From Bacteroidales bacterium (GTDB lineage Bacteria > Bacteroidota > Bacteroidia > Bacteroidales > UBA12077), in contig DAOUTQ010000001.1 of assembly GCA_030668615.1 (NCBI GenBank), forward strand, positions 1 to 49,173: DNA of 49,173 nt, written 5' to 3'. The stretch's first letter is position 1; each line of letters starts with the position of its first letter. Shown piece by piece: positions 4,553-48,865 of this stretch. The notes below the pieces were generated by a model, which did no database searches, had not been told where the DNA came from, and saw only the letters and a list, made by a program, of their open reading frames with translations. The translations under genes and the position numbers were made by a program.

Positions 4553-4560
4553 TACATTTG
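4553..4560 (+). promoter_or_regulatory. Bacteroidota-type -7 promoter box (TAnnTTTG)
   Basis: TACATTTG lies 28 nt upstream of ATG 4588. It overlaps the TTG at 4558 used by the ORF track, which argues for the 4588 start. Confidence 0.45.
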
Positions 4561-4587
4561 TTTTCACGTGTAATAATCAAAAACGCT

Positions 4588-5925: not shown

Positions 5926-6038
5926 TTAAAGAGTTGTCTTTTCTACATTAAAAATATTTTATTGATTGCTATTTTTTCTTAAGATTATCAGCTTCTGCAT
6001 AATATTTTCATTATTTTTATATAATTTCGCTTAAGATT

Positions 6039-8990
6039 ATGAAAATTAATATGAAAAAGGTTTTTATACTTTTAGTTACAAGTCTATTTTTAATTTCAAA
6101 TGTACCTGCTCAGGAATATTATGAATTAGAAGAATTATTTTTGGATGCAGACTCTTGGTTTTCGTACGAAGACTACGAAGAAGCCGTTCCTTTATTTCTT
6201 AGGGTTCTTGAATCTGATTCATTGAATTACAATGTAATGTACAAAATTGGCTTTTCATACTTACATATTCCAGGTCAAAAAGCAAAATCAATTTCATATC
6301 TTGAAAATGCTATACAAAAAACAACCGATACATACCGTAATAATACCTATTTAGAAAAACTGGCTCCGGTTGATGCTTTATTTTACCTCGGGAATGCATA
6401 TCTAGTAAATAATAGAATTGATGAAGCTATTGACGTATATTCCGGTTTCCAGAATGCAATTACCAGAACTAAAAAACTGGCAAATAAAGACATATATGAC
6501 ACCGATTACCTTAACAAACAATTTGATGCTTGTCGTAACGCTTTACAATTTCAATATAAGCCGGTTAGTTTTATAGCAAGTAATTTAGGAAATCAAATAA
6601 ATACAAGATTTAATGAATTTAATGCTGTAGTATCTGGAGATGGAACATCACTTGTTTTTACTGCTTCGCTTCAATTTTACGATGCAATTTTTTATTCTAA
6701 AAAAGACAGTAACGGACAATGGGGATATCCAATGAATATTATGGGACAACTGGGCATAGATGATAATAGCGCTACTACAGGATTGTCGTTTAACGGAACA
6801 GAGTTATATATATACCGTGATGATAATTTTGATGGTAATATCTATGTTAGTTACTTTAAAAATGGGATGTGGACAAGAGTGAAAAAGTTAGGCGAAAATA
6901 TAAATACTAAATATTGGGAATCTCATGCTTCTTTATCACCAGACAATCAAAAACTATACTTTGTAAGTAACCGTGCTGGTGGTTTTGGAGATCTTGACAT
7001 TTATGTTGCTCAAAGATTACCTGATTCAACATGGAGTGTTCCTGAGAATTTAGGAGGAAATATTAATACACGCTGGAATGAAAACACACCATTTTTAACT
7101 CCTAATGGTAAACGATTGTTTTTTAGCTCAGAAGGACATCAGGGAATGGGTGGTTACGATATTTTTTATTCCGAGAATAATGGAAGCGACTGGAATACAC
7201 CAGTAAATATTGGTTATCCTATTAATTCTACCGATAACGATATTTTCTTTGCACCAAACAAGAATGGCAGTTTCGCATATTGCTCACAATTTTCAAAAAA
7301 AGGTTTTGGAGGTCAAGATATATATCAGTTTCAATTATTAGACCTGCCTGGTTATAACAACCTTATTGTTGAAGGAGTTGAAACATTTGACAATAAAGAA
7401 GACAGAAATAAAAAAGATTTTAGCATAAATATCATTAATAAAGCGAATCAGGATACTATTGCTGTATTGAAACCTGATAATGATGTAACAGAGTATCAAT
7501 ATCAAACTCCACTAGGATTAAATCATTTAATATATGAGAGTTTGCAAAACGATGAAACAGGTAATCAGTTTTATATATCAAAATCATATGATATAAAAGA
7601 AGTTTTTCTTTCTTCTTTAATTCCTGATGAAGAAATTGAGAAAGATACATTACCTGAAATTAGTGCAGAAAAATCATTCTATGCAATAGACGGCGACGAT
7701 CGTAATATAAAAATCAAATTATCTGTTCAGAAAGGAAATAAGCTATTTGTAAATACTTTTTATAAAGATGAATTAATTAATTCTGAAGAATTCAATATTG
7801 ATAAAGAAGATTTTATATATGAGTATAAGCCTCTTGAAGGTGAAAGTATTATAAAATTTAAGCTGGTTGATAAAAACAATAATGTTAAAACAGAACAAGT
7901 AACTGTATCATATATACCTAAAGATTTTATAGCTGAATTGAACATTGATGAGAAAATTGTAATACTTTCCGAAAATGGCAAAAAAAGTGTAAAAATTAAA
8001 CTTTCTGTTGAAAAAGGTTCTAAATTATTTGTAGAAACTTATGTTGACGATAAGTTAATCAATAAGGAAAGTTTTAATATTAATAAAGAAAGTTTTGTTT
8101 ACGAGCTGGAACCTAAAGGTGAAAAAAGCAAGCTAAACTTTAGACTCGTTGACAAGCATAACAATGTTAAAAACGAAGAAATTATTATATCACATACTCC
8201 TGTAAATGAAGACTTAGCAAATATTCTCTCTGATGTTAGCTCATTTGACAGTCATGATTTCAGGACTATTATAGGAATGAACGAAATCAAATCAGCTACT
8301 TCAGTTGAAAATCTTATTTCTCAGATTTATGCTAAAGCTGCATCTATGGGATTATCAAAAGAACAAACACAGGCATTAATTATTGCATTAGCAATTAGCT
8401 CTACAGATAATACCGAAGAGTTTTTAAATAAATTATATCAAATTTCGGATGGTGATTTAAATACTGTATTAAAAGAAATGAGCTTAAATAAAGCTGATTA
8501 TAAGAATAATTTATCCGTTGTTCAAAATCTGGAACGTGAATCAGAAACACATAATTACAATAATAACCATATCATAAGTTTACTTGAAAAGTATTTATAC
8601 ACTTCTGGTATATCTACAGATGTTTTACTAGCGAAACTGGAAGAGATCCTTAAATCAGATATCTCAGGATTATTAGAAAATATGGGTGCTTCTGCAATCG
8701 ATATTGTTAGTATCGAAGATTTTAAAACGTATTTACGAAATAAAAATACTTACACTGAAACCGAGCTCAACTATATTTTTGCTTTACTTGAAGGAATGAA
8801 AATAACTTCAAAGGCTGCTAAAGATGCTGGATTAGATGTGAAAGAAGATAAAACACTTACTAAAGATACAGATAAGGCCACAAGTAAATGGATGATCCTA
8901 TATATTAGTATTGCCGGAATTCTTCTTGGAATAATTATTATATACTTCAATCGCAGAAAGGATAAAGCAAACAAAAAAAGAAGAAGATAA
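6039..8990 (+). CDS. Large TPR + PD40 beta-propeller protein with internal tandem domains and a C-terminal transmembrane tail anchor, paralog 2
   Basis: Signal peptide. N-terminal 430 aa co-linear with the 4588 and 9066 proteins (QKLYFVSNRAGGFGDLDIYVAQ; LFFSSEGHQGMGGYDIFYSE). Two ~94-aa repeats follow, then a helical region, then WMILYISIAGILLGIIIIYF followed by NRRKDKANKKRRR. Confidence 0.7.
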   Translation: MKINMKKVFILLVTSLFLISNVPAQEYYELEELFLDADSWFSYEDYEEAVPLFLRVLESDSLNYNVMYKIGFSYLHIPGQKAKSISYLENAIQKTTDTYRNNTYLEKLAPVDALFYLGNAYLVNNRIDEAIDVYSGFQNAITRTKKLANKDIYDTDYLNKQFDACRNALQFQYKPVSFIASNLGNQINTRFNEFNAVVSGDGTSLVFTASLQFYDAIFYSKKDSNGQWGYPMNIMGQLGIDDNSATTGLSFNGTELYIYRDDNFDGNIYVSYFKNGMWTRVKKLGENINTKYWESHASLSPDNQKLYFVSNRAGGFGDLDIYVAQRLPDSTWSVPENLGGNINTRWNENTPFLTPNGKRLFFSSEGHQGMGGYDIFYSENNGSDWNTPVNIGYPINSTDNDIFFAPNKNGSFAYCSQFSKKGFGGQDIYQFQLLDLPGYNNLIVEGVETFDNKEDRNKKDFSINIINKANQDTIAVLKPDNDVTEYQYQTPLGLNHLIYESLQNDETGNQFYISKSYDIKEVFLSSLIPDEEIEKDTLPEISAEKSFYAIDGDDRNIKIKLSVQKGNKLFVNTFYKDELINSEEFNIDKEDFIYEYKPLEGESIIKFKLVDKNNNVKTEQVTVSYIPKDFIAELNIDEKIVILSENGKKSVKIKLSVEKGSKLFVETYVDDKLINKESFNINKESFVYELEPKGEKSKLNFRLVDKHNNVKNEEIIISHTPVNEDLANILSDVSSFDSHDFRTIIGMNEIKSATSVENLISQIYAKAASMGLSKEQTQALIIALAISSTDNTEEFLNKLYQISDGDLNTVLKEMSLNKADYKNNLSVVQNLERESETHNYNNNHIISLLEKYLYTSGISTDVLLAKLEEILKSDISGLLENMGASAIDIVSIEDFKTYLRNKNTYTETELNYIFALLEGMKITSKAAKDAGLDVKEDKTLTKDTDKATSKWMILYISIAGILLGIIIIYFNRRKDKANKKRRR
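7650..8213 (+). repeat. Intragenic tandem duplication (2 x 282 bp, ~94 aa each) in the 983-aa protein
   Basis: Unit 1 reads ...NIKIKLSVQKGNKLFVNTFYKDELINSEEFNIDKEDFIYEYKP...KFKLVDKNNNVKTEQ. Unit 2 reads ...SVKIKLSVEKGSKLFVETYVDDKLINKESFNINKESFVYELEP...NFRLVDKHNNVKNEE. Roughly 45% identity by eye. Confidence 0.8.
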
Positions 8991-9065
8991 TAAGTTGTTT
9001 TTATTGGTATTTTTTATTTAAACTAAGTAACTTGCTTTGCTAAATTAACTTATTTTGATCGAGTT

Positions 9066-10352
9066 ATGAGAAAAGTAATTTTAATCACGTTTATTACTAT
9101 TATCGGGAGCTTAACAGCATTCTCTCAATACAAAAGTGCGCTAAAAGAGGCATTCTACGAAGCTGAATATTATATTCTATACGAAGACTACAATGAAGCT
9201 CTGGCACTATACCTTAATCTTTTAAATGACGGGCTTGATAATGCTTATATAAATCATAGAATTGGTGAATGTTACTTGCAGATTCCTGGCCAAAAAAATA
9301 AATCAATTCCTTATTTAGAAAAAGCATGTAATAATGTTACCAAAGTTATAAAAGAAGGTACTTTTAAGGAGACTAATGCACCAATCAGAACAATTTTTTA
9401 TCTTGCTTGCGCATATCAAATAAACAATGAGCTTGATAAAGCAATAGAAACATTTGAGAGTTTTAAACAAACACTTGCTGATAATAAAATATACAATACC
9501 GATTATATTGAAAAACAAATCCAGTCTTGTGAAATAGCAAAAGAATTAATAAATAATCCTACGGAAGTAAAAGTAAGTAATATTGGAGATCAAATAAATG
9601 ATGGGTTCCCAAATATCAGACCCGTTATTTCTTCTAGCGAAAATTGCATGGTATATGTTTCTAAGTTAAAATTCTACGATGCCATATTTTTCACAAAAAA
9701 AGTGGGTGACGAGTGGACATCTCCGATAAATATTACCCCTGAACTAAATTCAGATGGTGATTATTACTCTTGCTTTTTATCAAGTTATGGAAAAACACTG
9801 CTCTTATATAAATATGATGGTTATAACAGCGACATTTACATTAGTCGTAGAGTAATAAATGAACGATGGACAACTCCGGAAAAATTAAATAAACACATTA
9901 ATTCAAAATTTCAGGAAACATTTGCTTCACTGTCTAAAGATGGAAAAACTATTTATTTTGTAAGTGATCGTAAAGGAGGATATGGAGGAACTGATATATA
10001 TAAATCTGTTTACAATGAAAAAACGAAAGATTGGGGTGAAGCAATTAATCTGGGAAGTGAAATTAATACTCCTTTAAATGAAGAAACCCCTGTAATGAGC
10101 GAGGATGGTAAGAAGCTCTTTTTCAGCTCACAAGGTCATTATAACATGGGAGGATTTGATGTGTTTTGTGCACAAATGGATGCAAATAACAACTGGACAA
10201 AACCAAAAAATTTAGGTTATCCGATAAACTCCACAGACGACAACTTATTTTTCTTCCCTGTTGGAGATGGAACAAACGCATACATTTCCAAATTTGATCA
10301 AAATGGATTTGGACAGGAAGACATTGTAAAACTCGAAATTACCTCAAAATAG
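9066..10352 (+). CDS. Secreted TPR + PD40/TolB-like beta-propeller protein, paralog 3
   Basis: Signal peptide MRKVILITFITIIGSLTAFSQ. Same TPR block (IFYLACAYQINNELDKAIETFESF) and PD40 blades (DGKTIYFVSDRKGGYGGTDIYKS; LFFSSQGHYNMGGFDVFCAQ). Confidence 0.7.
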   Translation: MRKVILITFITIIGSLTAFSQYKSALKEAFYEAEYYILYEDYNEALALYLNLLNDGLDNAYINHRIGECYLQIPGQKNKSIPYLEKACNNVTKVIKEGTFKETNAPIRTIFYLACAYQINNELDKAIETFESFKQTLADNKIYNTDYIEKQIQSCEIAKELINNPTEVKVSNIGDQINDGFPNIRPVISSSENCMVYVSKLKFYDAIFFTKKVGDEWTSPINITPELNSDGDYYSCFLSSYGKTLLLYKYDGYNSDIYISRRVINERWTTPEKLNKHINSKFQETFASLSKDGKTIYFVSDRKGGYGGTDIYKSVYNEKTKDWGEAINLGSEINTPLNEETPVMSEDGKKLFFSSQGHYNMGGFDVFCAQMDANNNWTKPKNLGYPINSTDDNLFFFPVGDGTNAYISKFDQNGFGQEDIVKLEITSK

Positions 10353-35779: not shown

Positions 35780-37036
35780 TTATTGTAGTTTGGTGTTTAT
35801 TTCTGTTTGACCGATTAAGCGATCATAGCCTCCTCGAAAATCGTGGTAATATACGTATATAGCGTAAGAATTCTCGGTTTGTGCATGATTGCCTTCAATG
35901 TACGTAAAATCAAACTTTCCTTTTTCCAACAATGCATACTGGTAATTATAATAACCTTGCTTAATTAACATGCGACCTTCATATGCTTTTTGCTCAAAGT
36001 TATATGTCATTTTGTTTTCATCAGTAAATTCATAATTGCATAAAGCTCCCCAAACATAAATATCACCCTGTTGCATTGGAACATCCATGTTTAGCGTGAA
36101 ATATACCCAGCAATAATCTGCTTCTGTTTCAGGATACTGACTTTGTGATGCATCGATTTTAAATAATCCATTTAAATCAGATTTATAAATATATTCGTCG
36201 AAAGAACGATCTTTGTTTGCAAGCAACTGAAAATGATATTCGTAATTAAGAAAATTAATATTTATGATATTTTCACCTGCGTGATGTATGTTTTTAATGT
36301 TAAAATGATGAAATTCGTTTCCCCCTTTTAATTTTAACGAAGTAAAATTATTATAGGTAAATTCATTTTGATTTATCATATCAGGTTTCTCAGGTTTCAA
36401 ATATTCAAACCTATTTCTGTTTTTAATTACCTCAATTTTTATATTCTGTTGAATATCATAAAAATCATTTTCGAAATAATCTACTACAATTTCAAACTCC
36501 TGGTCGTTGTAGAAATAAGAACCCTGATTCATGTTTCGGATAAAAGCTTTAATGTCTGTTTTTCTTTCAACAACCCTGAATTGTTTAGTTATGAGAATCT
36601 TTTCAGGATTTGAACTTTCAAAAACCTGTACAATATAATTACCCGAAATCATCGGACGCATATAATCGTTTGGTAATTGCAATGTATAATGCGTATAATT
36701 TATTGTTGTATTAAATGAGGATTGATAATCTTGAATCTGATCATCAAAGTAGCCATCAATATATTCGCTTTGATCAAGATCCGTCGGAATCCATTCAGAA
36801 TTACAATGAACAATGGTATATGAAAAATCTCTTGCATCAGTACTTAAATCGTCAAAACTGAGTGTCAGTTTTTTACTGCTTCCTAAATCCCAAATTGGAA
36901 GTGAAAGAGCATCATTATCAGAATACATTAATACGGTTTTTATGTTACTGTCATACACTTTATCGTAAAATGCTTCCTGACAAAAAGCTGCATTAATTAA
37001 AAATAGGAATAAAACTACAGATACTACTTTCTTCAT
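35780..37036 (-). CDS. DUF5103 / type IX secretion system plug-like protein
   Basis: Signal peptide from ATG 37036 (MKKVVSVVLFLFLINAAFCQ). The block IKTVLMY...LTLSFDDLSTDARDFSYTIVHCNSEWIPTDL...YIDGY...IQDYQSSFNTTINYTHY matches my recollection of the DUF5103 N-terminal domain. Confidence 0.5.
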   Translation of the reverse strand: MKKVVSVVLFLFLINAAFCQEAFYDKVYDSNIKTVLMYSDNDALSLPIWDLGSSKKLTLSFDDLSTDARDFSYTIVHCNSEWIPTDLDQSEYIDGYFDDQIQDYQSSFNTTINYTHYTLQLPNDYMRPMISGNYIVQVFESSNPEKILITKQFRVVERKTDIKAFIRNMNQGSYFYNDQEFEIVVDYFENDFYDIQQNIKIEVIKNRNRFEYLKPEKPDMINQNEFTYNNFTSLKLKGGNEFHHFNIKNIHHAGENIININFLNYEYHFQLLANKDRSFDEYIYKSDLNGLFKIDASQSQYPETEADYCWVYFTLNMDVPMQQGDIYVWGALCNYEFTDENKMTYNFEQKAYEGRMLIKQGYYNYQYALLEKGKFDFTYIEGNHAQTENSYAIYVYYHDFRGGYDRLIGQTEINTKLQ

Positions 37037-37060
37037 TTTAAAAATGTTTGAAGCAAAGAT

Positions 37061-37093
37061 AAAAAAATAAGCCAGCAATAATTGTGCTGGCTT
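37061..37093 (-). terminator. Rho-independent terminator closing the Mrp/complex-I-like operon
   Basis: AAGCCAGCA (37069-37077) pairs with TGCTGGCTT (37085-37093). On the minus strand the stem is followed by a T-run (plus-strand AAAAAAAT, 37061-37068). Confidence 0.7.
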
Positions 37094-37144: not shown

Positions 37145-37627
37145 TTAATCTTCTTTGTTATACAAATGAATCCCGAACGGATTTCTAATATGCTCACGCA
37201 TAAGCTTAGCTTCATTCTCTGTTAATTCTAATTCATTTTTTATTATATCTCCCGATGAAATAATTCCTACCAGGTTATTTGATTCATCAACAATTGGAAT
37301 ATGACGTATTCTTTTCTCTGTCATTATATTCCTTAAATATTTTGTATCGTCATCTGTTTTTCCAATAATTAATTGGTCTTTTGGAGTCATTAAATTTTCA
37401 ATCTTTTGTTCAGTTAATGCAATTCCGGAATTATAGCATTTGTAAAGAATATCTCTTTCTGAAAGGATTCCAACAATTTCATCATTATTATTAATTACCA
37501 ACAAAGATCCTACTTTTAACTCATCTAATCGTGCAATTGCATCATATGCCGATGTATTTTCATGAACAGTATAAACTTTATGATTACCCTGTTCTTTCTT
37601 TTTATTTAGTATTTCCTTTACTAACAT
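37145..37627 (-). CDS. CBS-pair domain protein
   Basis: 160 aa with two CBS motifs (GSLLVINNNDEIVGILSERDIL; RHIPIVDESNNLVGIISSGDII). Confidence 0.8.
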   Translation of the reverse strand: MLVKEILNKKKEQGNHKVYTVHENTSAYDAIARLDELKVGSLLVINNNDEIVGILSERDILYKCYNSGIALTEQKIENLMTPKDQLIIGKTDDDTKYLRNIMTEKRIRHIPIVDESNNLVGIISSGDIIKNELELTENEAKLMREHIRNPFGIHLYNKED

Positions 37628-39529: not shown

Positions 39530-39892
39530 CTATTTATTATTGATTTTTTGGTTTAGTGTTTTTCGAGATGCTATAAATATTGATGTTAGTTCTTTACTTT
39601 CTTTTTAAAGATCTTCTAACAATTCCAACTTCATTAATTTTTCATCACTAATAAACTCTAACCAAAATATACTTTCATCAGCTTCTTCAATGTCTATACT
39701 TAATTTTGAAATAAAACTTTTCGTGGACTGAGCGATACAAGCTGCTCTATAATTTGCAGCAACAGAAGTAGAACATCGAACTAACTGACCTTTAATATGA
39801 TTCCCTAACATATTTCCAGGAAGAGATAACGCCAATTTCACACATCTATGTGCAAATGCTTTTGTTCTTAATATCAACTCATCTTTGTTCAT
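39530..39892 (-). pseudogene. Four-helix-bundle protein gene (23S rRNA intervening-sequence protein family) with an in-frame TAA
   Basis: 39605-39892 encodes 95 aa (RTKAFAHRCVKLALSLP...GQLVRCSTSVAANYRAA...ESIFWLEF). After the TAA at 39605-39607 the same frame continues as KESKELTSIFIASRKTLNQKINNK to a TAG at 39530-39532, giving the usual ~120-aa family length. Confidence 0.65.
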
Positions 39893-39927: not shown

Positions 39928-41118
39928 TTATCTTTCAATTTCGGGTGGATAAGTGTGTAATGACACCATTAATCCGGCCACATCAGCAATATTTGTATTA
40001 ATAATCATTTTTTCTAATAAAGCAATTGCATGAGTGTAACTTGGTCCACGAACATTTATTCTACGTGGATATTCTGTTCCATCAGAAACCATATAATATC
40101 CATACTCCCCTCTTGTACATTCTGCCCGACTATATGTTTCTCCTTTTGGTACTTTCCAATGAAGCACATTAGGAGTTTTTGCTTTTATATCTCCTTTTTC
40201 CGGCATCTTAGCAAAAATCTGTCGAATTAAATCTATTGAAAGCAAAAGATCTTTTCTTCTCACATCAGCTCTGGTATATATATCAGAATCTTTACCAACA
40301 ATTGCATCAAAATCTAAATCTGCATATTTTAAATATGGATAATCTTTTCTTACATCTTTTGCCACTCCGGCAGCTCTGGCATTTGGACCAGTAATCCCAA
40401 ATTTATTTATCCATGCTGGGTCAATATACCCAATACCAACCGAACGTTTTTTGAAAACAGCATTATTAAACATTACTTTATCAATATCTCCCATAAACTT
40501 CTCTATGGTCTGTAGAGTTTCTTCCATACGTTCTTTAAAGCCGTCAGGTAATAATCCCCGAACACCGCCGGGAAGTTGATACATATGATAAATTCTACCT
40601 CCGGTTAACTCTTCAAATCTATCAAGGACGAGATCGCGAAGATAATTTGCCCATTGGCCAATAATACCTGAACCAAAAGCTCCAGATTGTCCTCCAATCC
40701 ACATAAGATATGACTGCAAGCGTGACATTTCAAGAACAAGAGTTCTTAACCATTTTGCCATTTCCGGAATTTCAATTCCGGCTAATTCTTCCATTGCAGA
40801 TGCAAAACAGTACTCATTAAAATCCGGTTCAGGAACAGCAACTCTACACACAATAGGAAAACATTGAATATATTTTCTGCGCTCCATTAGTTTTTCAAAA
40901 CCACGATGAAGGTAACCAACATGCGTTTCGCAATGCATAACTTCATCGCCTAAGACAGTGAGTTCTAAAGCCATATTCCCGGTAATACCTGGATGCTGTG
41001 GACCTTGCCACAATTTTAGATATTTGTGTGAGCTTAAATCTATATCAATTTTCCCATCAGCATTCTTCTCAGGAAATTGCGATCTGTCTTCAGTTATTTT
41101 AAACAATTTATTTTTCAT
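39928..41118 (-). CDS. NuoD / MbxL-like 49-kDa-type subunit lacking [NiFe]-ligand cysteines
   Basis: GPQHPGITGNM...VGYLHRGFEKLMERRKY is the NuoD/large-subunit signature. The position of the hydrogenase RxCGxC motif reads IVCRVAVPEP. The C-terminus reads SLHTYPPEIER instead of DPCxxCxxR. Confidence 0.8.
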   Translation of the reverse strand: MKNKLFKITEDRSQFPEKNADGKIDIDLSSHKYLKLWQGPQHPGITGNMALELTVLGDEVMHCETHVGYLHRGFEKLMERRKYIQCFPIVCRVAVPEPDFNEYCFASAMEELAGIEIPEMAKWLRTLVLEMSRLQSYLMWIGGQSGAFGSGIIGQWANYLRDLVLDRFEELTGGRIYHMYQLPGGVRGLLPDGFKERMEETLQTIEKFMGDIDKVMFNNAVFKKRSVGIGYIDPAWINKFGITGPNARAAGVAKDVRKDYPYLKYADLDFDAIVGKDSDIYTRADVRRKDLLLSIDLIRQIFAKMPEKGDIKAKTPNVLHWKVPKGETYSRAECTRGEYGYYMVSDGTEYPRRINVRGPSYTHAIALLEKMIINTNIADVAGLMVSLHTYPPEIER

Positions 41119-41626
41119 CTGGATATAGCTTTTTCTTCATGTACTCTGCCGGATCATTTGATTCTCTTCCGGGTCTTGGGAAATATGTATCTTCCGAGTA
41201 TTGCTTTGTATCAAAATCTCTTCTATATGGTGGTTTGTCGTCCCATCCTTCAAGAATAAATGGCTTATCAACATCTGGGCTACCCGGGAAATCAATTCCA
41301 AACATTTCTTTTAATTCTCTCTGATAAGTTGCTACTTGCTCCCATAAATGATGTGCAGTTTCCATAGTAGCATCCTCACGAGAAATAAACACCCTTACTC
41401 CTAAGTCTGATTTCTCATCAGGGTTATTTAAAAGATAAGTCAATTGAAATTCCTCATCTTCCAGCCAGTCAGCAGCAGTAAGTAATACCAAATGCTTAAA
41501 TCCTTTAACATCTCTCAAATAAGTTACTAAAGAAATAGCATGTTCTTTTGGAATTGTGATAAAACTGAGATTTTCTCGCTGCTCAATAATATCAGTTATA
41601 TCAAATTTGGTTTTTATATCGTTCAT
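41108..41626 (-). CDS. NuoC / MbhK-like 30-kDa-type subunit
   Basis: 172 aa. LVTYLRDVKGFKHLVLLTAADW and YQRELKEMFGIDFPG blocks are typical of Complex1_30kDa. Overlaps the NuoD-like start by 11 nt. Confidence 0.75.
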   Translation of the reverse strand: MNDIKTKFDITDIIEQRENLSFITIPKEHAISLVTYLRDVKGFKHLVLLTAADWLEDEEFQLTYLLNNPDEKSDLGVRVFISREDATMETAHHLWEQVATYQRELKEMFGIDFPGSPDVDKPFILEGWDDKPPYRRDFDTKQYSEDTYFPRPGRESNDPAEYMKKKLYPDEK

Positions 41627-41654
41627 TAATTTATTATTTATAATTGATTAATGA

Positions 41655-41717
41655 TTATTGTATTTTGTTAATTATTTTTCGTGATGCAGATAGTAAACTT
41701 TTTACTCCTTTTATCAT
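41655..41717 (-). other. Possible 20-codon remnant of a second four-helix-bundle gene in the NuoB/NuoC spacer
   Basis: Minus-strand MIKGVKSLLSASRKIINKIQ* resembles the C-terminal tail SIFIASRKTLNQKI of the 39530-39892 gene. The DNA block TTTTTCGTGATGCAGATAG compares with TTTTTCGAGATGCTATAAA. Confidence 0.3.
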
Positions 41718-41776
41718 TTTTCTATCTATGTATATTATTCAATAATTAAATAGTCATTAATAAATAGTAAATCTTA

Positions 41777-42415
41777 TTACCAATTATAATCGGGCATATC
41801 CCAATCTTTAATTACTTTCTTTTGATTTGCTTTATACCAATCAAACTTTTCTGCATAGGTATTTGCTCCTTCACCGCGTCCTTCTGTTATAATAGTTTTC
41901 AATTTATCGAAACCTGCTAATAATGATTCTGGTCTTGGCATACAGCCGGCAATATAAACATCAACAGGCATATAATGATCAAGTCTATTTATGGTGTTGT
42001 AGCTATCCCAGTACATTCCGCCGTTTATAGTACAACTACCAAGCGCAATTACAAATTTTGGATTTTGCATTTGCTCATATGTTCGAACAACTCTTTTTAA
42101 AGTTTTCACCGATAAATATCCTGAAACAACAAAAACAGAAGCTTGTCTTGGTGTTGGTCTCCACTGAATCCCATACCTGTAAGCATCAAATCGGGGAGTC
42201 ATTAAAGGGCGCATTTCAATAGCACCACAACCTGTTCCAAATCCAAGTACCCAAAGGGAATTAGCTCTTGCCCAATTCGCAAATTTTTCAATTATTGGAT
42301 GTGCTGGCTTATAAACCTTTGGTTTAGCATCACTAAAATAATCTTTTAAAGGATCTATTTCAATTGGTTTACCCTCAGGGGAAATTACCGTTCTTTTTTT
42401 AAAATCTTCTTTCAT
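41777..42415 (-). CDS. NuoB / MbhJ-like 20-kDa-type subunit with only three cysteines
   Basis: GFGTGCGAIEM (canonical is CCxxE), LGSCTINGG and IAGCMPRPE. No other Cys in the 212 aa. Confidence 0.8.
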   Translation of the reverse strand: MKEDFKKRTVISPEGKPIEIDPLKDYFSDAKPKVYKPAHPIIEKFANWARANSLWVLGFGTGCGAIEMRPLMTPRFDAYRYGIQWRPTPRQASVFVVSGYLSVKTLKRVVRTYEQMQNPKFVIALGSCTINGGMYWDSYNTINRLDHYMPVDVYIAGCMPRPESLLAGFDKLKTIITEGRGEGANTYAEKFDWYKANQKKVIKDWDMPDYNW

Positions 42416-42424
42416 CTTCTAAAA

Positions 42425-43342
42425 TCAAATTAAAATTATTGCAATAATTCCAATAATTAAGGGTACTGTTAAAAACCATCTTACTGATTGATCAACCCTA
42501 AAGCGTGGAAAAACAGTTCCCACAAAAACCGGCCACATATAGATTAAAAATGTTTTAAGGATTAGTTCAGCCCAATTTGTTGCACCTCCAAAAAGCAAAT
42601 TCATAAACAGAATTAATTTTGCTGCGGGAAAAATTGCACGATTAAGTTGCAATACACCCAAAAGACCTGACTGAAATTCTGTAGGTGGTCCTATTGGGAT
42701 TTCCTGTGGAGCTAAAACTACATCGAAAGGTGAACGTCCCATAGCTCCTAAAAACGCAATTAGCATTGCAATTGCGGCAAAAGGATTGGTAATAATTGTC
42801 CAGTTCATAAAACCACCTTGTTGAGCTGCAACAATTTCAGTTATATTTAATGTTTGATATTGCATTGCAATTGCAATAACTCCGAGTGTTAATGGCAATT
42901 CAAATGATGTAACTTGTGATAATCCTCTTGAAACACCAATTGCTGAATAAGGATGTCCACTTTCAGCTGCTCCCAACGCCATTCCTAATATTCCAAAAAA
43001 CTGAAAATAAAGAACTAATACTAAATCTCCGGCAAAAGAAAAGTTTCCAAAAATATCAGATCCAAAAATTACAGGCATAAAAAGTAATAAACCAATACCT
43101 CCTGTTAATCTGAAAACCGGAGCAATATAAAACATAACTCCATGAGTAATGGTGCTACGTTTAGCATAATTTTTAATTATATCGATATATGGCTGATACC
43201 ATCTAATCCCATAACGACGCCCTACTCTTGCACCAATCTTACGAACTACTCCCTGAAGAATAAGTCCATAATTTAAAACAATAAAGATTGTTAAAAGGGC
43301 ATACCCTATATTTTTAAATTCCATATGATCCTCCAAACGCAA
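42425..43342 (-). CDS. NuoH / MbhM-like membrane subunit
   Basis: About 8 TM helices. N-terminal LQGVVRKIGARVGRRYGIRWYQPYIDIIKN parallels the ERK..A..Q.R.GP...QP.AD..K block of NuoH. The start could be ATG 43324 instead. Confidence 0.7.
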   Translation of the reverse strand: MRLEDHMEFKNIGYALLTIFIVLNYGLILQGVVRKIGARVGRRYGIRWYQPYIDIIKNYAKRSTITHGVMFYIAPVFRLTGGIGLLLFMPVIFGSDIFGNFSFAGDLVLVLYFQFFGILGMALGAAESGHPYSAIGVSRGLSQVTSFELPLTLGVIAIAMQYQTLNITEIVAAQQGGFMNWTIITNPFAAIAMLIAFLGAMGRSPFDVVLAPQEIPIGPPTEFQSGLLGVLQLNRAIFPAAKLILFMNLLFGGATNWAELILKTFLIYMWPVFVGTVFPRFRVDQSVRWFLTVPLIIGIIAIILI

Positions 43343-46300
43343 TTAGATAAAAGATTACAATAAACGCAATTATATGAAGCACATAAGTCTGTGCGTTCCC
43401 GTCATAAATTCGCCTGATTTTATCGGCTATAGCATGAATTCCTTCAGATACTGCCTCCCAAAAATCTGAGATGATTGGTGATACAAGAAATCCTAATGCT
43501 TTTTTATAAGGTGCAAAGAAATTATATGCAAAATGTGTAGTCTCCGGCAATGATGGACGTTCAGCTGAATATCCAATATTAAATTGTTTTACTTTCTGAG
43601 CATTTCGGTTCATAAACCATAACCATGCAAAAACTATAACAAATATACCCCCAACGATATACATTATTAACTCACCATTCCAGTAGCCAAAATTACTTAC
43701 TGCTAATTGTCCCTGCCATTCCAAAGCTCCATCAGAAAAATATGGCATTATTACTTCGCCAATTGGTTTTAGTAATGAATTTGGAAATGCAGAGAAGATC
43801 ATTATTACACCTAAAATTATATATTGAGGAAGCAACATCCAGAATGGAGCTTCTTTTACTTCGCGGTGCTCATCTTTAAGTTGACCCAGAAAGATTGTAT
43901 GAATTAATCGGAAACAATATAAGAATGCAATTATTCCTGCAAAAAATATTGCACCGGCAGGTAAAAACCATCCTTTATCTAAAACAGCATTATATAATAT
44001 CCATTTTCCACCAAATCCGGTTAACGGAGGTACGCCTGAAATAACAATAATCCCCATTAAAACAGAAATAAAAGTAAAAGGCATCTTTTTTATTAATCCA
44101 CCCATCTTATACATTTCTTTAGTTTTAACCCTCATAACAACTCCTCCTATCGCAAGGAATAATAATGTTTTAAACATAAAGTGAATAACAGATAATGAAA
44201 CTGCTGCCAACCATCCTAAATGCGACATAAGTGCTAATCCAAACAAGGCATATCCTAAAAATCCAACACTGGAATAAGCAAGTAATCGCTTTGCATCTTC
44301 CTGAAATGCTGCCATCATATTACCCATTATTGCAGTAATAGCGCCAATCCATGCAAGTGCATAATAAATATCAAAACTTCCAAATGATTGAGCTCCCATT
44401 CTTAGCATTAAAACAATTAAACCAAACACACCGGCTTTCAATAAAATTGCTGATACCATAGGTGATACATCGCTTTCAGCCTCGGCATGTGCTCCCGGCA
44501 ACCAAATGTGTAATCCAATGGAAGCAGTTTTAGTCATAAAACCAACTGCCAGTAAAGTAAAAATTATTGGCGCATAGCCCTGTACATTTGCTAAAATATC
44601 AAGCGAATATGATGATTGGCCAATATGAGCCAAACCAAATCCTGCAAGTATTAAATAAGCACCTCCCACCGAGAAAAGCATATAACTCAATGCATGAGTC
44701 ATTGATTTCTTCCCTCTAATAATTAAGAAATATGAACCTATTGTCATTATTTCCCATGCAAAAAAGAATTCGAGTGTTGTATTAGCCTCAATTAAACCAA
44801 GAAGCCCTGCAAACATCATCATTACTAAAGGATAGAAACCTTGTCTTTTCCCTTTATAAGTATATCCCGCAAGTAAAGTAAGAATACCACCTGCAAGAAA
44901 TATCAAAGCAAAAATCAAGTTAAATTCTTCAAGTCCTGGATATATTGTGTATAAATAATATCCTATACCCGCTATTGAAATTGTGTTTTTAATATATACC
45001 GGCAGAAAATCAATTGCATATAAGAAAAGAATAAATAACAGTGGAATGTAATTTAGACTTGCTGCCGAACCTGTTAATGTACTATAATAATATCCAATTG
45101 CATATAAACCTAAAGCAAAAATAATGACAGGTATTATTTTATTCCATTGTATTTTAAATTCAGGTAGATCCTGATTTTCACCTTTAATTGCATATCCAAA
45201 CCAACGGAATAGATAAACTCCTTCGATAAATGATCCGATCAAAATTAGAGCAAGCCAAATAATCTTATCATTATTTGCAAGTTGCATTATTAATTCCCAC
45301 TTTGCAAAGAATGATGGAAATGGCGGGAATCCAACTAAAGCAAAAATGAAAGTCCCCATCAGAACTAATAAATGTGGATTTCTTCTGATTGCTGCCCATC
45401 CCTTTATATTTTTAGAATTAATTATTCCTGATAACCAGAACAATCCGGCTTTTGCAAGAGCATGAGATATTAAAACCCCAAAAGCTATAAATAAAGTTTT
45501 GTCTCCAAGATATGGAGTTAAACCAATTATTGTTAATAGCAGACCTATTTGTCCAATTGATGAGTAACCTAATAAACGGTTTGTTGTGTTTTGTTTTAAT
45601 CCCAATAAATTTGACCCAAGGAAAGTAATGATTCCAATTATACCTATAATATAATACCCCGACTCTCCTACAATTGGTAAAATCTTTGTGAGAACAAAAA
45701 TTACAGCTGATGCGGAAGCTGCAGAAACAATAGTCCCAATTCCTGGATGTGCTGCTTCATAAACATCCAAAGCCCATCCATTTGCAGGAAAAGGCTTTAA
45801 TTCCAAGACTATAGCAATAAGAATTAAAAATACGGCAACTGCGCCACCTTTAATAAAACTTAAATTCGAATTAATAATATCATTAATATATAAAGATTCT
45901 GCATAATAATACACAGCTATAATTCCAATCAATAGTATACCACTAATAATAGCTGTTGCAATAATATATTTAAATCCAGCACTTATAGCATTTGCACTTT
46001 TATCAAGAATAATTAAACCTGCCGTTGCAATACTGGCAATCTCAAGAAATACAAACAGATTGAAAATATCTCTGGTCATTACTACCACATTAAGTCCCAT
46101 GAACAGAAGAACAAATACCATCATCATCTGAACGCCTTTTTCTTTGAGCTTGTCATACATATATATTGCCGATAGCAATCCTACAATATTTATTATGCTC
46201 AAAAAAACTGCTTCATAAAACCCCATTTGCAAACTAATTGAAAATGGTGGTTTAAAACCTGCTGTAAAAATTTGTATTGTTTCCTGTTGCTGAGTTAAAA

Positions 46301-46451
46301 AAGCATACAACCACTGACCCGAAATAAAAGTCATAAAGGTCATTGCTAATAACATAAATGCAAAAGAAAATTTGACATTAGCTTTCTTGAAAAATCCAAG
46401 AGAAAACGCCGTTCCTAATGCAACTGCAATTATATATATTGGTCCTACCAT
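43314..46451 (-). CDS. Fused double antiporter-like subunit (two MrpD/NuoL/M/N-type proton-conducting modules in one 1045-aa protein)
   Basis: Module 1 has DIFNLFVFLEIASIATAGLI and LGYSSIGQIGLL. Module 2 has LEFFFAWEIMTIGSYFLI, WLPGAHAEAESDVS and LLAYSSVGFLGYA. About 28-30 TM helices. Confidence 0.8.
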   Translation of the reverse strand: MVGPIYIIAVALGTAFSLGFFKKANVKFSFAFMLLAMTFMTFISGQWLYAFLTQQQETIQIFTAGFKPPFSISLQMGFYEAVFLSIINIVGLLSAIYMYDKLKEKGVQMMMVFVLLFMGLNVVVMTRDIFNLFVFLEIASIATAGLIILDKSANAISAGFKYIIATAIISGILLIGIIAVYYYAESLYINDIINSNLSFIKGGAVAVFLILIAIVLELKPFPANGWALDVYEAAHPGIGTIVSAASASAVIFVLTKILPIVGESGYYIIGIIGIITFLGSNLLGLKQNTTNRLLGYSSIGQIGLLLTIIGLTPYLGDKTLFIAFGVLISHALAKAGLFWLSGIINSKNIKGWAAIRRNPHLLVLMGTFIFALVGFPPFPSFFAKWELIMQLANNDKIIWLALILIGSFIEGVYLFRWFGYAIKGENQDLPEFKIQWNKIIPVIIFALGLYAIGYYYSTLTGSAASLNYIPLLFILFLYAIDFLPVYIKNTISIAGIGYYLYTIYPGLEEFNLIFALIFLAGGILTLLAGYTYKGKRQGFYPLVMMMFAGLLGLIEANTTLEFFFAWEIMTIGSYFLIIRGKKSMTHALSYMLFSVGGAYLILAGFGLAHIGQSSYSLDILANVQGYAPIIFTLLAVGFMTKTASIGLHIWLPGAHAEAESDVSPMVSAILLKAGVFGLIVLMLRMGAQSFGSFDIYYALAWIGAITAIMGNMMAAFQEDAKRLLAYSSVGFLGYALFGLALMSHLGWLAAVSLSVIHFMFKTLLFLAIGGVVMRVKTKEMYKMGGLIKKMPFTFISVLMGIIVISGVPPLTGFGGKWILYNAVLDKGWFLPAGAIFFAGIIAFLYCFRLIHTIFLGQLKDEHREVKEAPFWMLLPQYIILGVIMIFSAFPNSLLKPIGEVIMPYFSDGALEWQGQLAVSNFGYWNGELIMYIVGGIFVIVFAWLWFMNRNAQKVKQFNIGYSAERPSLPETTHFAYNFFAPYKKALGFLVSPIISDFWEAVSEGIHAIADKIRRIYDGNAQTYVLHIIAFIVIFYLIAFGGSYGI

Positions 46452-46816
46452 TTTAGATCGTTATAATTATTGATTTCTAATGATTTCCTTTTCTGATACA
46501 TTTTTAATACATATGTAAGCATTAGTGCTGTAATACCCAATCCAATTACAATAGCTGTAAGAACTAATGCCTGTGGAACAGGATCAACAACTGCGTTTGC
46601 AGCATTATTTATATCTACAGCATTATCGAGTATTGGTGCTGTCCCGTTCTTAATATAACCAATGCTTACCATTACGATATGTATCCCTGTATCAAACAAG
46701 GCAAATCCGATAATAATCTTTATTAGGTTTTTTTGTGTTAATAAGCCCCATAAACCAATAAGAATTACAAGAATTCCAATAACAAGGCTTATATTTTCTA
46801 AATTAAACTTTTCCAT
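46445..46816 (-). CDS. MrpC/MnhC (NuoK-like) subunit
   Basis: 123 aa, 3 TM. PQALVLTAIVIGLGITALML is typical of MnhC. Overlaps the downstream start by 7 nt. Confidence 0.75.
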   Translation of the reverse strand: MEKFNLENISLVIGILVILIGLWGLLTQKNLIKIIIGFALFDTGIHIVMVSIGYIKNGTAPILDNAVDINNAANAVVDPVPQALVLTAIVIGLGITALMLTYVLKMYQKRKSLEINNYNDLKW

Positions 46817-47514
46817 TATACTTCGTTCTGATTTTCTTGAAGATTAGCAATTATTCCTGATAATTCGGCACCTACTTTTAATCCAACAAAAATGTAGATA
46901 ACAGGAATAAGTCCTGCACTGAAAATTGTTCCGAATTTACCTAAGGATAATAATGTATTGTCGAGAAATCCTGCTGCAAAAATAACACCGGCAACGCCAA
47001 TTAAAACAAAACTCAAACCCGATATTGATTCAACAATTGTAATTAATTTATGACTAACTTCTTTCGCAGGCTGTGACAGCAACATTAAAACCAAGCCCGA
47101 TGCTATTATTGCTCCCCCCTGGAAACCTCCGCCCGGGCTTAAATGTCCGTTAATAAAAACATATATGCCGAATAATAATGTTACCGGCACTAATATTTTT
47201 GATGCTGTATCTAATATTTCACTTGTAGTTCTTAACTTTCGTTTTCGACTTGCACTTGTTTCAATTTTCAGTAAAAAACTCACTATGGCTGCCGACAAGA
47301 ACAAGATAGTTACTTCGCCAAGAGTATCCAACCCACGATATGTAACTACAACTGCTGTTACAAGGTTTGCAGAACCAACTTCTTCAGGTCCCGATACAGC
47401 GTAATGATTTGCTAAAGTATTTAATTCGGAATTACCTTTAAAGCCAACAAATACATTAGCCAATAAAACGGCAAATCCAATTAACACAATAAATATTAAT
47501 ATATTCTTAACCAT
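46816..47514 (-). CDS. MrpB/MnhB-domain subunit (MbhE/F-like)
   Basis: NLVTAVVVTYRGLDTLGEVTILF is the MnhB signature. 232 aa, multi-TM. Confidence 0.75.
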   Translation of the reverse strand: MVKNILIFIVLIGFAVLLANVFVGFKGNSELNTLANHYAVSGPEEVGSANLVTAVVVTYRGLDTLGEVTILFLSAAIVSFLLKIETSASRKRKLRTTSEILDTASKILVPVTLLFGIYVFINGHLSPGGGFQGGAIIASGLVLMLLSQPAKEVSHKLITIVESISGLSFVLIGVAGVIFAAGFLDNTLLSLGKFGTIFSAGLIPVIYIFVGLKVGAELSGIIANLQENQNEV

Positions 47515-47752
47515 TTTGTCTTTTTATTTTGTTTAAAACATAAAAGAAAATAATAGTGGATAATCCACTACCAATAGCTGCTTCTGTCATTGCAACATCA
47601 GGAGCTGACAAAAGCAGATATAATACCGATGCAAACAAACTAACAGCACCTGCAGCTATTATACCTACTACTAAGTTCTTATGAATAATAGCAATTACTG
47701 CCATAATCAGAATTAAAACTCCTATAAAGAGAGCAATTATAAGTTGAATCAT
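47507..47752 (-). CDS. MbhD / MrpA-C-terminal (DUF4040) subunit
   Basis: 81 aa, 3 TM. LLLSAPDVAMTEAAIGSGLSTIIF matches the DUF4040 APDVALTEA block. Confidence 0.7.
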   Translation of the reverse strand: MIQLIIALFIGVLILIMAVIAIIHKNLVVGIIAAGAVSLFASVLYLLLSAPDVAMTEAAIGSGLSTIIFFYVLNKIKRQNG

Positions 47753-47753
47753 G

Positions 47754-48116
47754 TTATTCGTTTTTAATTTCTTTATTTACTTTATAAGTAGTTTCTTCTT
47801 TATCTAACAAATCTGTCACAGTTTTATCTGTCAAAGGAATTTTAATATAATGTGCTGCACGCGCAAGAACATGAGAAGAAACCGGATTGGTAATTAATAT
47901 AAATATCATTAATAATATTAATTTCCCCCACCACTCAGGTGTAATCAATAATAATCCTATTAATGATAAAAGTGTTCCTAAAGTAGAAGCCTTTGTTCCT
48001 GCCTGTATTCGGTTAAACAAATCGGGCATACGAACTAAACCTAAAGCTCCAAGAAATAGGAAAATAGAACCTAACAAAACCAATATTGCACCTATTATTT
48101 CTAATGTACTATCCAT
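47754..48116 (-). CDS. MrpG/MnhG subunit
   Basis: GALGLVRMPDLFNRIQAGTKASTLG is the PhaG/MnhG signature. The ATG at 48116 abuts the upstream stop at 48118. Confidence 0.8.
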   Translation of the reverse strand: MDSTLEIIGAILVLLGSIFLFLGALGLVRMPDLFNRIQAGTKASTLGTLLSLIGLLLITPEWWGKLILLMIFILITNPVSSHVLARAAHYIKIPLTDKTVTDLLDKEETTYKVNKEIKNE

Positions 48117-48117
48117 A

Positions 48118-48378
48118 TTACAATCCCCTTTCAAAATAACGTGAAACAATAATTACTCCCAAAAAGCTAAGTAATCCGTACACTATAGCAACATCCAAAT
48201 AAATTATTCGAGAAGCTAAATAAGCAATTAATGCAATAAGTGCAAGAGAACTAACTGTCATTACATCATATGCAACTAATCGATCCGGAGCTGTCGGGCC
48301 TTTAATAAATCTATAAAGTGATAGCATAATTGCTAACAACATAATTATCGCCGACGCAAAAAGTATTTTACTAACCAT
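48118..48378 (-). CDS. MrpF/MnhF subunit
   Basis: 86 aa. YRFIKGPTAPDRLVAYDVM is the MnhF signature. Confidence 0.8.
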   Translation of the reverse strand: MVSKILFASAIIMLLAIMLSLYRFIKGPTAPDRLVAYDVMTVSSLALIALIAYLASRIIYLDVAIVYGLLSFLGVIIVSRYFERGL

Positions 48379-48865
48379 ATATCTTTTCTAAATGTTTTTC
48401 AAATTTTTTAACAATAGCTTCAGTAGCTTTATCAATATCTTCACAACAAACATCTATACAATGAATGTACAGAATATCATCCTCAATATCAACAGTAAGC
48501 GTACCTGGTGTAAGTGTAATAGAGTTGGCAAGAATCATTCTTCCCATTTTTGATTTTAGTATAGTCTTTGTTTTTATAATTCCCGGATTTATTGGTAAAG
48601 CCGGAGTAAGAACTCGTCTCGCAACATCCAGATTTGATTTAATCAACTCAATTAAGAAAACAAACAGATATAAAATTGTATTCAAGAATGATTTAGGTGT
48701 AAATTTCAATTCATTAAATATCTGTATATGTCGTCCAAAAAGTATTGAAATAATTAGTGAAAGAACAAATCCAATAATTATTAATTCTAATTGAAAACTA
48801 TTATTCAATAAAACCCAAATAATTATTAAAATTATAAAAAGAGATAACTGATTCTTAATCTTCAT
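48371..48865 (-). CDS. MrpE/MnhE subunit
   Basis: NLDVARRVLTPALPINPGII...LANSITLTPGTLTVDI is the MnhE signature. First gene of the operon. Confidence 0.8.
   Translation of the reverse strand: MKIKNQLSLFIILIIIWVLLNNSFQLELIIIGFVLSLIISILFGRHIQIFNELKFTPKSFLNTILYLFVFLIELIKSNLDVARRVLTPALPINPGIIKTKTILKSKMGRMILANSITLTPGTLTVDIEDDILYIHCIDVCCEDIDKATEAIVKKFEKHLEKIYG

Follow-up and report, generated by a model that had tools for sequence, protein, structure and literature searches.

A conserved three-cysteine cluster site in a widespread bacterial relative of archaeal sulfur-reducing MBS

We analysed a 49,173-nt stretch of DNA from a Bacteroidales bacterium of the UBA12077 lineage (assembly GCA_030668615.1, contig DAOUTQ010000001.1, positions 1 to 49,173; hereafter the window), and in particular two of its minus-strand genes, between positions 39,928 and 42,415, whose products resemble the NuoB and NuoD subunits of complex I. 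Judged from their sequences, these two proteins, here called B and D, make up the catalytic core of a bacterial complex, widespread and strongly conserved, that is related to the sulfur-reducing MBS of archaea, and the surrounding locus appears to encode a complete bacterial Mrp-Mbx (MBS-type) ion-translocating oxidoreductase. B is predicted to hold a [4Fe-4S] proximal cluster on three Cys, leaving one Fe without a protein thiolate, and the pocket that would face this cluster has lost all NiFe and quinone ligands, yet is strongly conserved. The three-Cys cluster is a hallmark of the family, and neither a product of decay nor a sequencing error. The two genes are:

41777-42415, minus strand: NuoB/MbsJ-like subunit (B), 212 amino acids (aa), Pfam PF01058 and NCBIfam NuoB
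39928-41118, minus strand: NuoD/MbsL-like subunit (D), 396 aa, Pfam PF00346

To which known complex are B and D closest? Compared with all PDB sequences, B matched MbsJ of the Pyrococcus furiosus MBS (6U8Y) with an E-value of 1.4e-61, against 3.7e-37 for the best complex I/NDH-1 chain and 1.9e-25 for MbhJ, and D matched MbsL (6U8Y, 1.2e-91) ahead of Nqo4 (1.4e-58) and MbhL (1.3e-33). For several operon subunits the best PDB matches are the corresponding MBS chains of 6U8Y (J, L, N, H and X, the last being H'). Foldseek searches with AlphaFold2 models also returned 6u8y_J as the top match for B (TMt 0.76) and 6u8y_L for D. The B model is acceptable (predicted local distance difference test, pLDDT, 78), and confidence in the D model is low precisely at the interface (segments 41-47, 68-101, 318-360 and 390-396). 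For D the TM-scores barely separate MBS from complex I, and the sequence evidence is the more decisive.

Translation of its open reading frame gives B exactly three Cys, C63 (in GCGAIEM), C128 (GSCT) and C158 (GCMPRPE). When B was aligned with E. coli NuoB, C63 fell on the first Cys of the tandem CC pair and G64 on the second (GTG-C63-G64-A-IEM in B, S-C63-C64-Y-VEM in NuoB), so that an earlier note on this DNA was right on both the Cys count and the Gly; the reading frames and motifs that it quoted all lie where it placed them. The CxxC loop of E. coli HycG, which carries an extra Cys, is two residues longer than the loop of B, and at the fourth-ligand position of B (G64-A65) the side chain is absent. 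The alignment with MbsJ (6u8y_J) is gapless over 162 residues (B 42-203) at 53% identity; it places C63, C128 and C158 on MbsJ C28, C93 and C123 with a loop of equal length, and G60 on MbsJ C25. The equivalent of G64 is Gly in P. furiosus MbsJ as well. The likeness to MBS, which the note had used as an analogy, is thus one of homology, with MbsJ and MbsL as best structure matches and MbsJ aligned without a gap.

Two sets of relatives were used to follow these residues: 120 close homologues each for B and D (at least 71% identical), from Bacteroidales, Marinimicrobia, Magnetococcus, Varunaivibrio and Sedimenticola; and 80 genomic loci (L001-L080), with counts over 72 loci for B, 80 for D and 70 for the fused NuoI-like subunit described below. 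The loci span Bacteroidales, Spirochaetes, Cloacimonadota, Alpha-, Beta- and Gammaproteobacteria, Chlorobiota, Calditrichia, Aminicenantes and Thermoanaerobaculia, and across many phyla the proteins show 57-97% identity. The three Cys and G64 of B occur in 120/120 close homologues; across the loci, C128 and C158 are present in 72/72, and C63, G64 and G60 each in 71/72. A sequencing error at the GCG motif, which the earlier note had named as a possible refutation, is therefore excluded by the invariant Gly in homologues, loci and MbsJ, although the G64 codon (GGT) is a single base away from TGT. When 1.84 billion 50%-identity representatives were searched, the combined signature xGCG(A/G)IE and GCMPRP was found only in about 20 top, MBS-like representatives; below these the complex-I CC motif takes over (117/150 representatives).

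D was aligned with E. coli HycE, E. coli NuoCD, T. thermophilus Nqo4 and MbsL, with the reference ligands taken from PDB alignments (Nqo4, MbsL and MbsJ) or from the annotated E. coli K-12 proteins (NuoB, NuoCD, HycG and HycE). Hydrogenase motif L1 (RVCGIC) aligns to D R92-V-A94-V-P-E97 and motif L2 (DPCYSC) to H388-T-Y390-P-P-E393, and all four NiFe Cys positions are non-Cys (A94, E97, Y390 and E393). D contains five Cys (C63, C86, C91, C104 and C334), among which C91 lies one residue ahead of the conserved Arg and outside the ligand positions. The Nqo4 quinone ligands are replaced as well, H38 by T46, Y87 by V95 and D139 by A147. The alignment, of the kind suggested in the earlier note as a check, thus bears out the absence of NiFe and quinone ligands, including the C-terminal DPCxxC motif devoid of Cys, the exchange of the quinone His for Thr and the missing quinone-ligand Tyr. 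The note also left the L1 motif at most one Cys; the count at ligand positions is in fact zero, C91 being off-site.

Loss of the classical ligands did not come with relaxed conservation. In D, T46, V95, E97 and R336 are found in 80/80 loci and E393 in 79/80; in the 120 homologues T46 is kept in 119, and V95, E97, H388, Y390, E393, R396 and C334 are invariant or nearly so. The conserved pocket of the close homologues comprises H388, Y390, E393, E97, C334 and R336. Majority-residue frequency is 0.83-0.93 in the L1, L2, ExxRG and beta1-beta2 loop segments of D, against 0.71 for D as a whole. The B/D interface, called degenerate in the earlier note, belongs to the best conserved parts of both proteins across phyla, and that label finds no support.

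Three pocket positions of D vary in a patterned way. Across the loci, the counts are 56 Cys and 22 Ala at position 94, 57 Tyr and 22 Cys at position 390, and 48 Cys, 27 Ser and 5 Ala at position 334. At least one Cys stands at 94, 334 or 390 in all 80 loci and in the window; Cys390 occurs only alongside Cys94 and a non-Cys residue at 334, and Ala94 only alongside Cys334 and Tyr390. The pattern may point to the retention, perhaps with relocation, of a single thiol close to the former NiFe pocket; this is a lead only, drawn from phylogenetically non-independent sequences.

What would a cluster on three Cys do? In archaeal MBS, whose three-Cys catalytic cluster was described in 2020, MbsJ C28, C93 and C123 are the sole ligands of the proximal cluster and C25 is too distant; the C25A and the MbsL C85A/C385A enzymes have full dimethyl trisulfide (DMTS)-reducing activity, and oxidative loss of the unique Fe abolishes activity reversibly (PMC7684303). 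Because the Cys of B coincide with the only ligands of this catalytic cluster, a substrate-facing, site-differentiated cluster appears to be the best reading of the three-Cys site. The Cys missing at the positions of B G60 and of D A94 and Y390 are compatible with activity, since the corresponding MBS mutants stay active. The window proteins embody a "minimal" version of the MBS site, with Gly, Ala and Tyr at three dispensable Cys positions. Our additions are modest: a three-Cys motif, stripped of vestigial Cys, that is fixed across a very large bacterial clade, together with clade-specific invariant pocket residues and a semi-conserved N-terminal Cys in B.

The B and D genes belong to an operon that runs from 48865 to 37145 on the minus strand. 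Its other genes are, in the order of transcription:

48371-48865, minus strand: MrpE-like (NCBIfam)
48118-48378, minus strand: MrpF-like (NCBIfam)
47754-48149, minus strand: MrpG-like (NCBIfam)
47507-47752, minus strand: DUF4040/MrpA-C-terminal-like (NCBIfam)
46816-47514, minus strand: MrpB-like (NCBIfam)
46445-46816, minus strand: MrpC/NuoK-like (NCBIfam)
43314-46451, minus strand: fused antiporter-like pumps, MbsH-like N half and MbsH'-like C half, 1045 aa, two PF00361 stretches
42425-43342, minus strand: NuoH/MbsM-like membrane anchor, 305 aa, Pfam PF00146 (7.8e-47), conserved in the operon
41108-41626, minus strand: NuoC/MbsK-like subunit, 172 aa, Pfam PF00329 (3.4e-25)
39605-39892, minus strand: four-helix-bundle protein (23S rRNA IVP family), 95 aa, PF05635 and TIGR02436
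37707-39503, minus strand: NuoI::NfnB/GltD-like fusion (I::NfnB), 598 aa, Pfam and NCBIfam PRK13984 (899 bits)
37145-37627, minus strand: CBS-pair protein, 160 aa, Pfam PF00571, last gene of the transcription unit

Together, 12 genes cover 13 MBS-equivalent modules. The membrane arm has the make-up of that of MBS, with two antiporter-like pumps, a full Mrp module and a NuoH-like anchor. The block of Mrp-type small membrane subunits (46445-48865) is ordered as in related loci, and the whole order, MrpEFG-B-B-C, MbsH/H', NuoH, B, C, D and I::NfnB, is constant in all sufficiently long loci, with the NuoC-like gene between B and D in every locus. The 1045-aa pump protein matches 6u8y_H over residues 7-260 (1.3e-42) and 6u8y_X over residues 467-1040 (2.5e-62), and this MbsH/H' fusion recurs in nearly all of the 80 loci. 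The I::NfnB gene always follows D, normally after 5-40 nt; here the four-helix-bundle gene sits between them. That gene is absent from this gap in 78/80 loci and is a local insertion outside the conserved complex; a metagenome-assembled genome (MAG) of Salinivirgaceae (L045) has a different, 122-aa member of the four-helix-bundle family in the same place. In a Tepidiphilus MAG the D-to-I::NfnB gap holds yet another reading frame (L021:1873-2721), which has an STFK motif and resembles a class D (OXA-type) beta-lactamase.

The electron-input side departs from the archaeal plan. In the 598-aa fusion an MbsN-like 2x[4Fe-4S] domain is followed by a second 2x[4Fe-4S] domain (Fer4_20) and by FAD and NAD(P)H Rossmann domains. 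Residues 5-134 match MbsN (6u8y_N, 6e-22), and residues 149-598 match NfnI-L/SudA (5jca_L, 3.7e-76), T. maritima NfnB (4ylf_B, 1.3e-70), GltD (1e-49) and DPD (1e-33). The MbsN-like domain does not stand alone in the window or in any of the 70 loci, where it is always joined to the NfnB/GltD-like flavoprotein, and 17 Cys, enough for four [4Fe-4S] clusters, are kept in 70/70. The C-terminal 450 residues are like NfnB, SudA (NfnI-L) and GltD in their two [4Fe-4S] motifs and their FAD and NAD(P)H Rossmann folds; unlike in those enzymes, they are fused to a NuoI/MbsN domain and would be docked on a membrane complex, and no NfnA/SudB or GltB partner is encoded in the operon. Because the electron-input subunit, overlooked in the earlier note, is such a flavoprotein fusion, NAD(P)H, and not only ferredoxin, is likely to be an electron partner. 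A wire of five clusters can be traced, on this prediction, from the FAD/NAD(P)H site to the proximal cluster.

How does the locus compare with characterised systems? With P. furiosus MBS it shares the 13-module architecture (Mrp module, MbsH and MbsH', MbsM and J/K/L/N), the three-Cys proximal cluster with its equal loop length and GCMPRP signature, Glu and Asp/Glu at NiFe positions 2 and 4, and the lack of a quinone His or Tyr; identity of the window proteins is 53% for J and 42% for L. It differs in that (i) MbsN is joined in one chain to an NfnB/GltD-like NAD(P)H flavoprotein, whereas the archaeal subunit is free and accepts electrons from ferredoxin; (ii) MbsH and MbsH' are fused; (iii) MbsJ C25 is Gly, with Ala and Tyr in place of MbsL C85 and C385; (iv) D has a new conserved Cys334 in its ExxRG motif; (v) B carries N- and C-terminal extensions; and (vi) the host is a mesophilic bacterium.

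The complex I Q-module (Nqo4/Nqo6; NuoCD/NuoB) has in common with B and D the fold, the cavity-forming subunits, the length of the beta1-beta2 loop and two of three distal Cys motifs, but identity is only 30-36%, and the window lacks the CC pair, H38/Y87/D139 and NuoEFG, with Mrp-type small subunits instead. Neither a NuoE/F/G NADH module nor a NuoA/J/K/L/M/N membrane set is present in the operon. The group 4 [NiFe] hydrogenases (MBH, and Hyd-3 with HycE/HycG) show common ancestry, the L1 Arg, the ExxRG motif and a conserved C-terminal S-L-x-x-x-x-x-x-x-D/E-R frame; at 25-28% identity they differ from the window proteins, which are without the four NiFe Cys and have a shorter proximal-cluster loop lacking the fourth Cys. 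Ehr (energy-converting hydrogenase-related)/Mbx complexes without NiFe ligands are a recognised class, and the window falls under the definition of Ehr, a combination of group-4-hydrogenase-like and Mrp-like subunits devoid of NiFe ligands (PMC6349859).

Closer still are the bacterial mbx-like operons of Thermotoga and proteobacteria, described in 2015, in which a gltD-like gene replaces NuoI and a rubrerythrin gene is often terminal (PMC4758237). Operons of this type, such as those of Thermotoga, Magnetococcus and Endoriftia, agree with the window in layout and in the gltD-like subunit, and the 'mbxL' product of Magnetococcus MC-1 is 74% identical to D. They differ in that the window has a CBS-pair gene and the four-helix-bundle insertion, not rubrerythrin-like or DHOD-like genes, and that the vestigial Cys reported for mbx-like NuoD are replaced here (A94 and Y390). 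The public annotation, "NADH-quinone oxidoreductase subunit B/D" and "glutamate synthase small chain", is misleading and wrongly implies complex I.

What reaction could such a complex catalyse? The function that we favour, at about even odds, is that of an ion-translocating, NAD(P)H-linked sulfane-sulfur oxidoreductase. NAD(P)H would reduce the FAD of the I::NfnB fusion, and electrons would travel by way of four [4Fe-4S] clusters to the proximal cluster with its three Cys. There, in line with the proposal for P. furiosus MBS, the unique Fe would bind a sulfane-sulfur compound, for example polysulfide or persulfide, and cleave it reductively. The redox change would then drive Na+/H+ translocation via a three-loop coupling region. 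In an anaerobic-type Bacteroidales host, the complex could serve as an energy-conserving NAD(P)H sink in fermentation where zero-valent sulfur is present, and the reverse reaction may take place in sulfur oxidisers with the same operon. Consistent with a role in sulfur reduction, T. maritima mbxA is up 4.4-fold on elemental sulfur (S0) (PMC9431562), and a deep-branching thermophilic bacterium induces its MBS genes on S0 (PMC10356935).

Several points weigh against this sulfane-sulfur function. Electron transfer from NAD(P)H to polysulfide yields, from established midpoint potentials, some 10-20 kJ per two electrons, which is thin for a membrane arm with two pumps; ferredoxin-driven MBS yields 42 kJ. 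The flavoprotein half is nearest to the electron-bifurcating NfnB, hence ferredoxin may still participate. The operon is also found in aerobic Rhodobacterales and in sulfur oxidisers, and neighbouring genes hint that its partners or substrates may be different or more numerous: downstream stands a rubrerythrin-like ferritin-fold gene in about 30 loci, mostly non-Bacteroidales, and a DHOD-like gene (NF005741) in 12 Bacteroidales loci that include the closest genome relatives (L001 and L003). Finally, literature searches found no biochemically characterised bacterial Mbx, and the function of the Endoriftia operon is listed as unknown (PMC11636981).

Does the complex perhaps use no soluble substrates besides ferredoxin and NAD(P)(H)? 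It would then be an ion-translocating, Rnf-like ferredoxin:NAD(P)+ oxidoreductase, or a flavin-based bifurcating or confurcating variant, with the three-Cys cluster as an element of the coupling or of a high-potential branch, and without sulfur chemistry at it. We consider this unlikely, though it deserves to be taken seriously: it follows the older Mbx assignment, repeated in PMC4758237, PMC6349859 and a Mesotoga preprint; the fused domain is most like the bifurcating NfnI-L, NfnB and StnC; and the Endoriftia operon is co-expressed with the ferredoxin-dependent reductive tricarboxylic acid (rTCA) cycle (PMC11636981). However, the assignment of P. furiosus Mbx has since been changed to a sulfane reductase whose three-Cys cluster is catalytic (PMC7684303), transfer between ferredoxin and FAD would need neither the proximal cluster nor the pocket, yet both are most conserved, and an NfnA-like partner is missing from the operon.

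The terminal extensions of B bear on a second alternative. Residues 1-41 (window 42292-42415, minus strand) form a bacterial-specific N-terminal extension that MbsJ lacks, and a C-terminal extension, W..MPDYNW, is highly conserved and likewise not in MbsJ. The N-terminal extension carries a conserved DY[FY]C..P motif, whose Cys is residue 28: Cys in 97 and Ser in 14 of the 120 homologues, and in the 72 loci Cys in 54, Ser, the commonest replacement, in 11 and Leu or Ala in 6; overall some 78% of relatives have the Cys. The earlier note had named a fourth Cys in related genomes as a possible refutation; most of them do have one, but at residue 28 and not in the GCG motif. The window itself has Ser28, as do its five nearest relatives (93-97% identity); these are independent assemblies, and a sequencing error at S28 was rejected on that ground. 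Cys28 might be a fourth ligand in most members, with Ser28 in its place here, and the cluster would then serve electron transfer, as an ordinary or a switchable centre. AlphaFold2 (monomer, pLDDT 74-88) predicts an ordered extension with a beta hairpin and a short helix, and Ser is able to ligate Fe. The 6 loci with Leu or Ala, and the absence of the extension from MbsJ, where three-Cys coordination was directly observed, make this distinctly improbable.

A non-canonical quinone (menaquinone) reductase, in which a homologous cavity would bind its substrate through different ligands, seems more doubtful again. The NuoH-like, B and D subunits do form a complex-I-type cavity, and the beta1-beta2 loop GPQHPGITG has the length seen in complex I and keeps QHP; but H38, Y87, D139 and the CC pair are all absent and invariantly replaced, and the sequences are far closer to MBS than to any quinone-reducing complex. 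That every classical NiFe and quinone ligand is gone could also signal a degenerate, inactive redox module with only Mrp antiporter function left, or an assembly or sequencing artefact, but we give this virtually no credence, as it is refuted by conservation: the identity across many phyla, the invariant FeS ligands of B and of the fusion, the invariant Gly64 and the recurrence of the same residues in independent assemblies.

The clade, marked by the I::NfnB fusion, a pocket invariant at T46, V95, E97 and E393, and the semi-conserved Cys28 of B, may be a distinct NAD(P)H-coupled machine and not a mere copy of the ferredoxin-driven archaeal sulfur reductase, a proposal that we make tentatively and hold to be rather unlikely. 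Three versions are possible: (i) an ion-motive NAD(P)H:persulfide/polysulfide oxidoreductase, reversed in sulfur oxidisers; (ii) a flavin-bifurcating enzyme that would split NADPH electrons between ferredoxin and the membrane site; and (iii) an enzyme with a different acceptor, tied to the rubrerythrin-like or DHOD-like partners. In any of them, a switchable fourth ligand and a persulfide carrier are conceivable roles of residue 28.

In a scan with one genome per species, at least 593 genomes have a relative. Among the carriers of the MBS-type operon are sediment fermenters, sulfur-oxidising symbionts and aerobic marine Rhodobacterales. The only organism in which an iron-sulfur cluster has so far been shown to catalyse sulfur chemistry directly is a hyperthermophilic archaeon; if the bacterial family works likewise, mesophilic bacteria may commonly carry out such chemistry and couple it to NAD(P)H. 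The main value of the locus is that it draws attention to a bacterial enzyme family that is abundant, uncharacterised and present in cultured bacteria; with Prolixibacter, Magnetococcus marinus, Celeribacter and Tropicimonas at hand, the role of bacterial Mbx is directly testable.

Accessory genes differ from lineage to lineage. The rubrerythrin-like protein, as a partner, would be in keeping with a need to protect or repair a three-Cys cluster sensitive to oxidants. The CBS-pair gene, an accessory or regulatory candidate, follows the operon in the window and likewise in 7 loci, and a divergent Crp/Fnr-type regulator with an N-terminal Cys-rich stretch stands upstream in 13 loci. No rubrerythrin-like, DHOD-like or Crp/Fnr homologue is present in the window, whose end lies some 300 bp upstream of the operon's first gene, so that a regulator farther upstream would fall outside it. 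Downstream, between the CBS-pair gene and, on the convergent side, a plug-domain gene of the type IX secretion system (T9SS; 35780-37078), a bidirectional GC-rich hairpin with T-runs on both strands (37069-37093) is likely to be the operon terminator. A promoter scan gave 62 matches against 65 expected, not above chance.

The window has a GC content of about 31%, and its nearest named relatives are the Bacteroidales Williamwhitmania, Tenuifilum and Prolixibacter. Scans of the window for tRNA and Rfam families gave no matches, and its remaining genes are ordinary housekeeping genes, with none of sulfur metabolism. A row of three genes on the plus strand (4558-10352) codes for PD40/WD40-like beta-propeller repeat proteins of 455, 983 and 428 aa.

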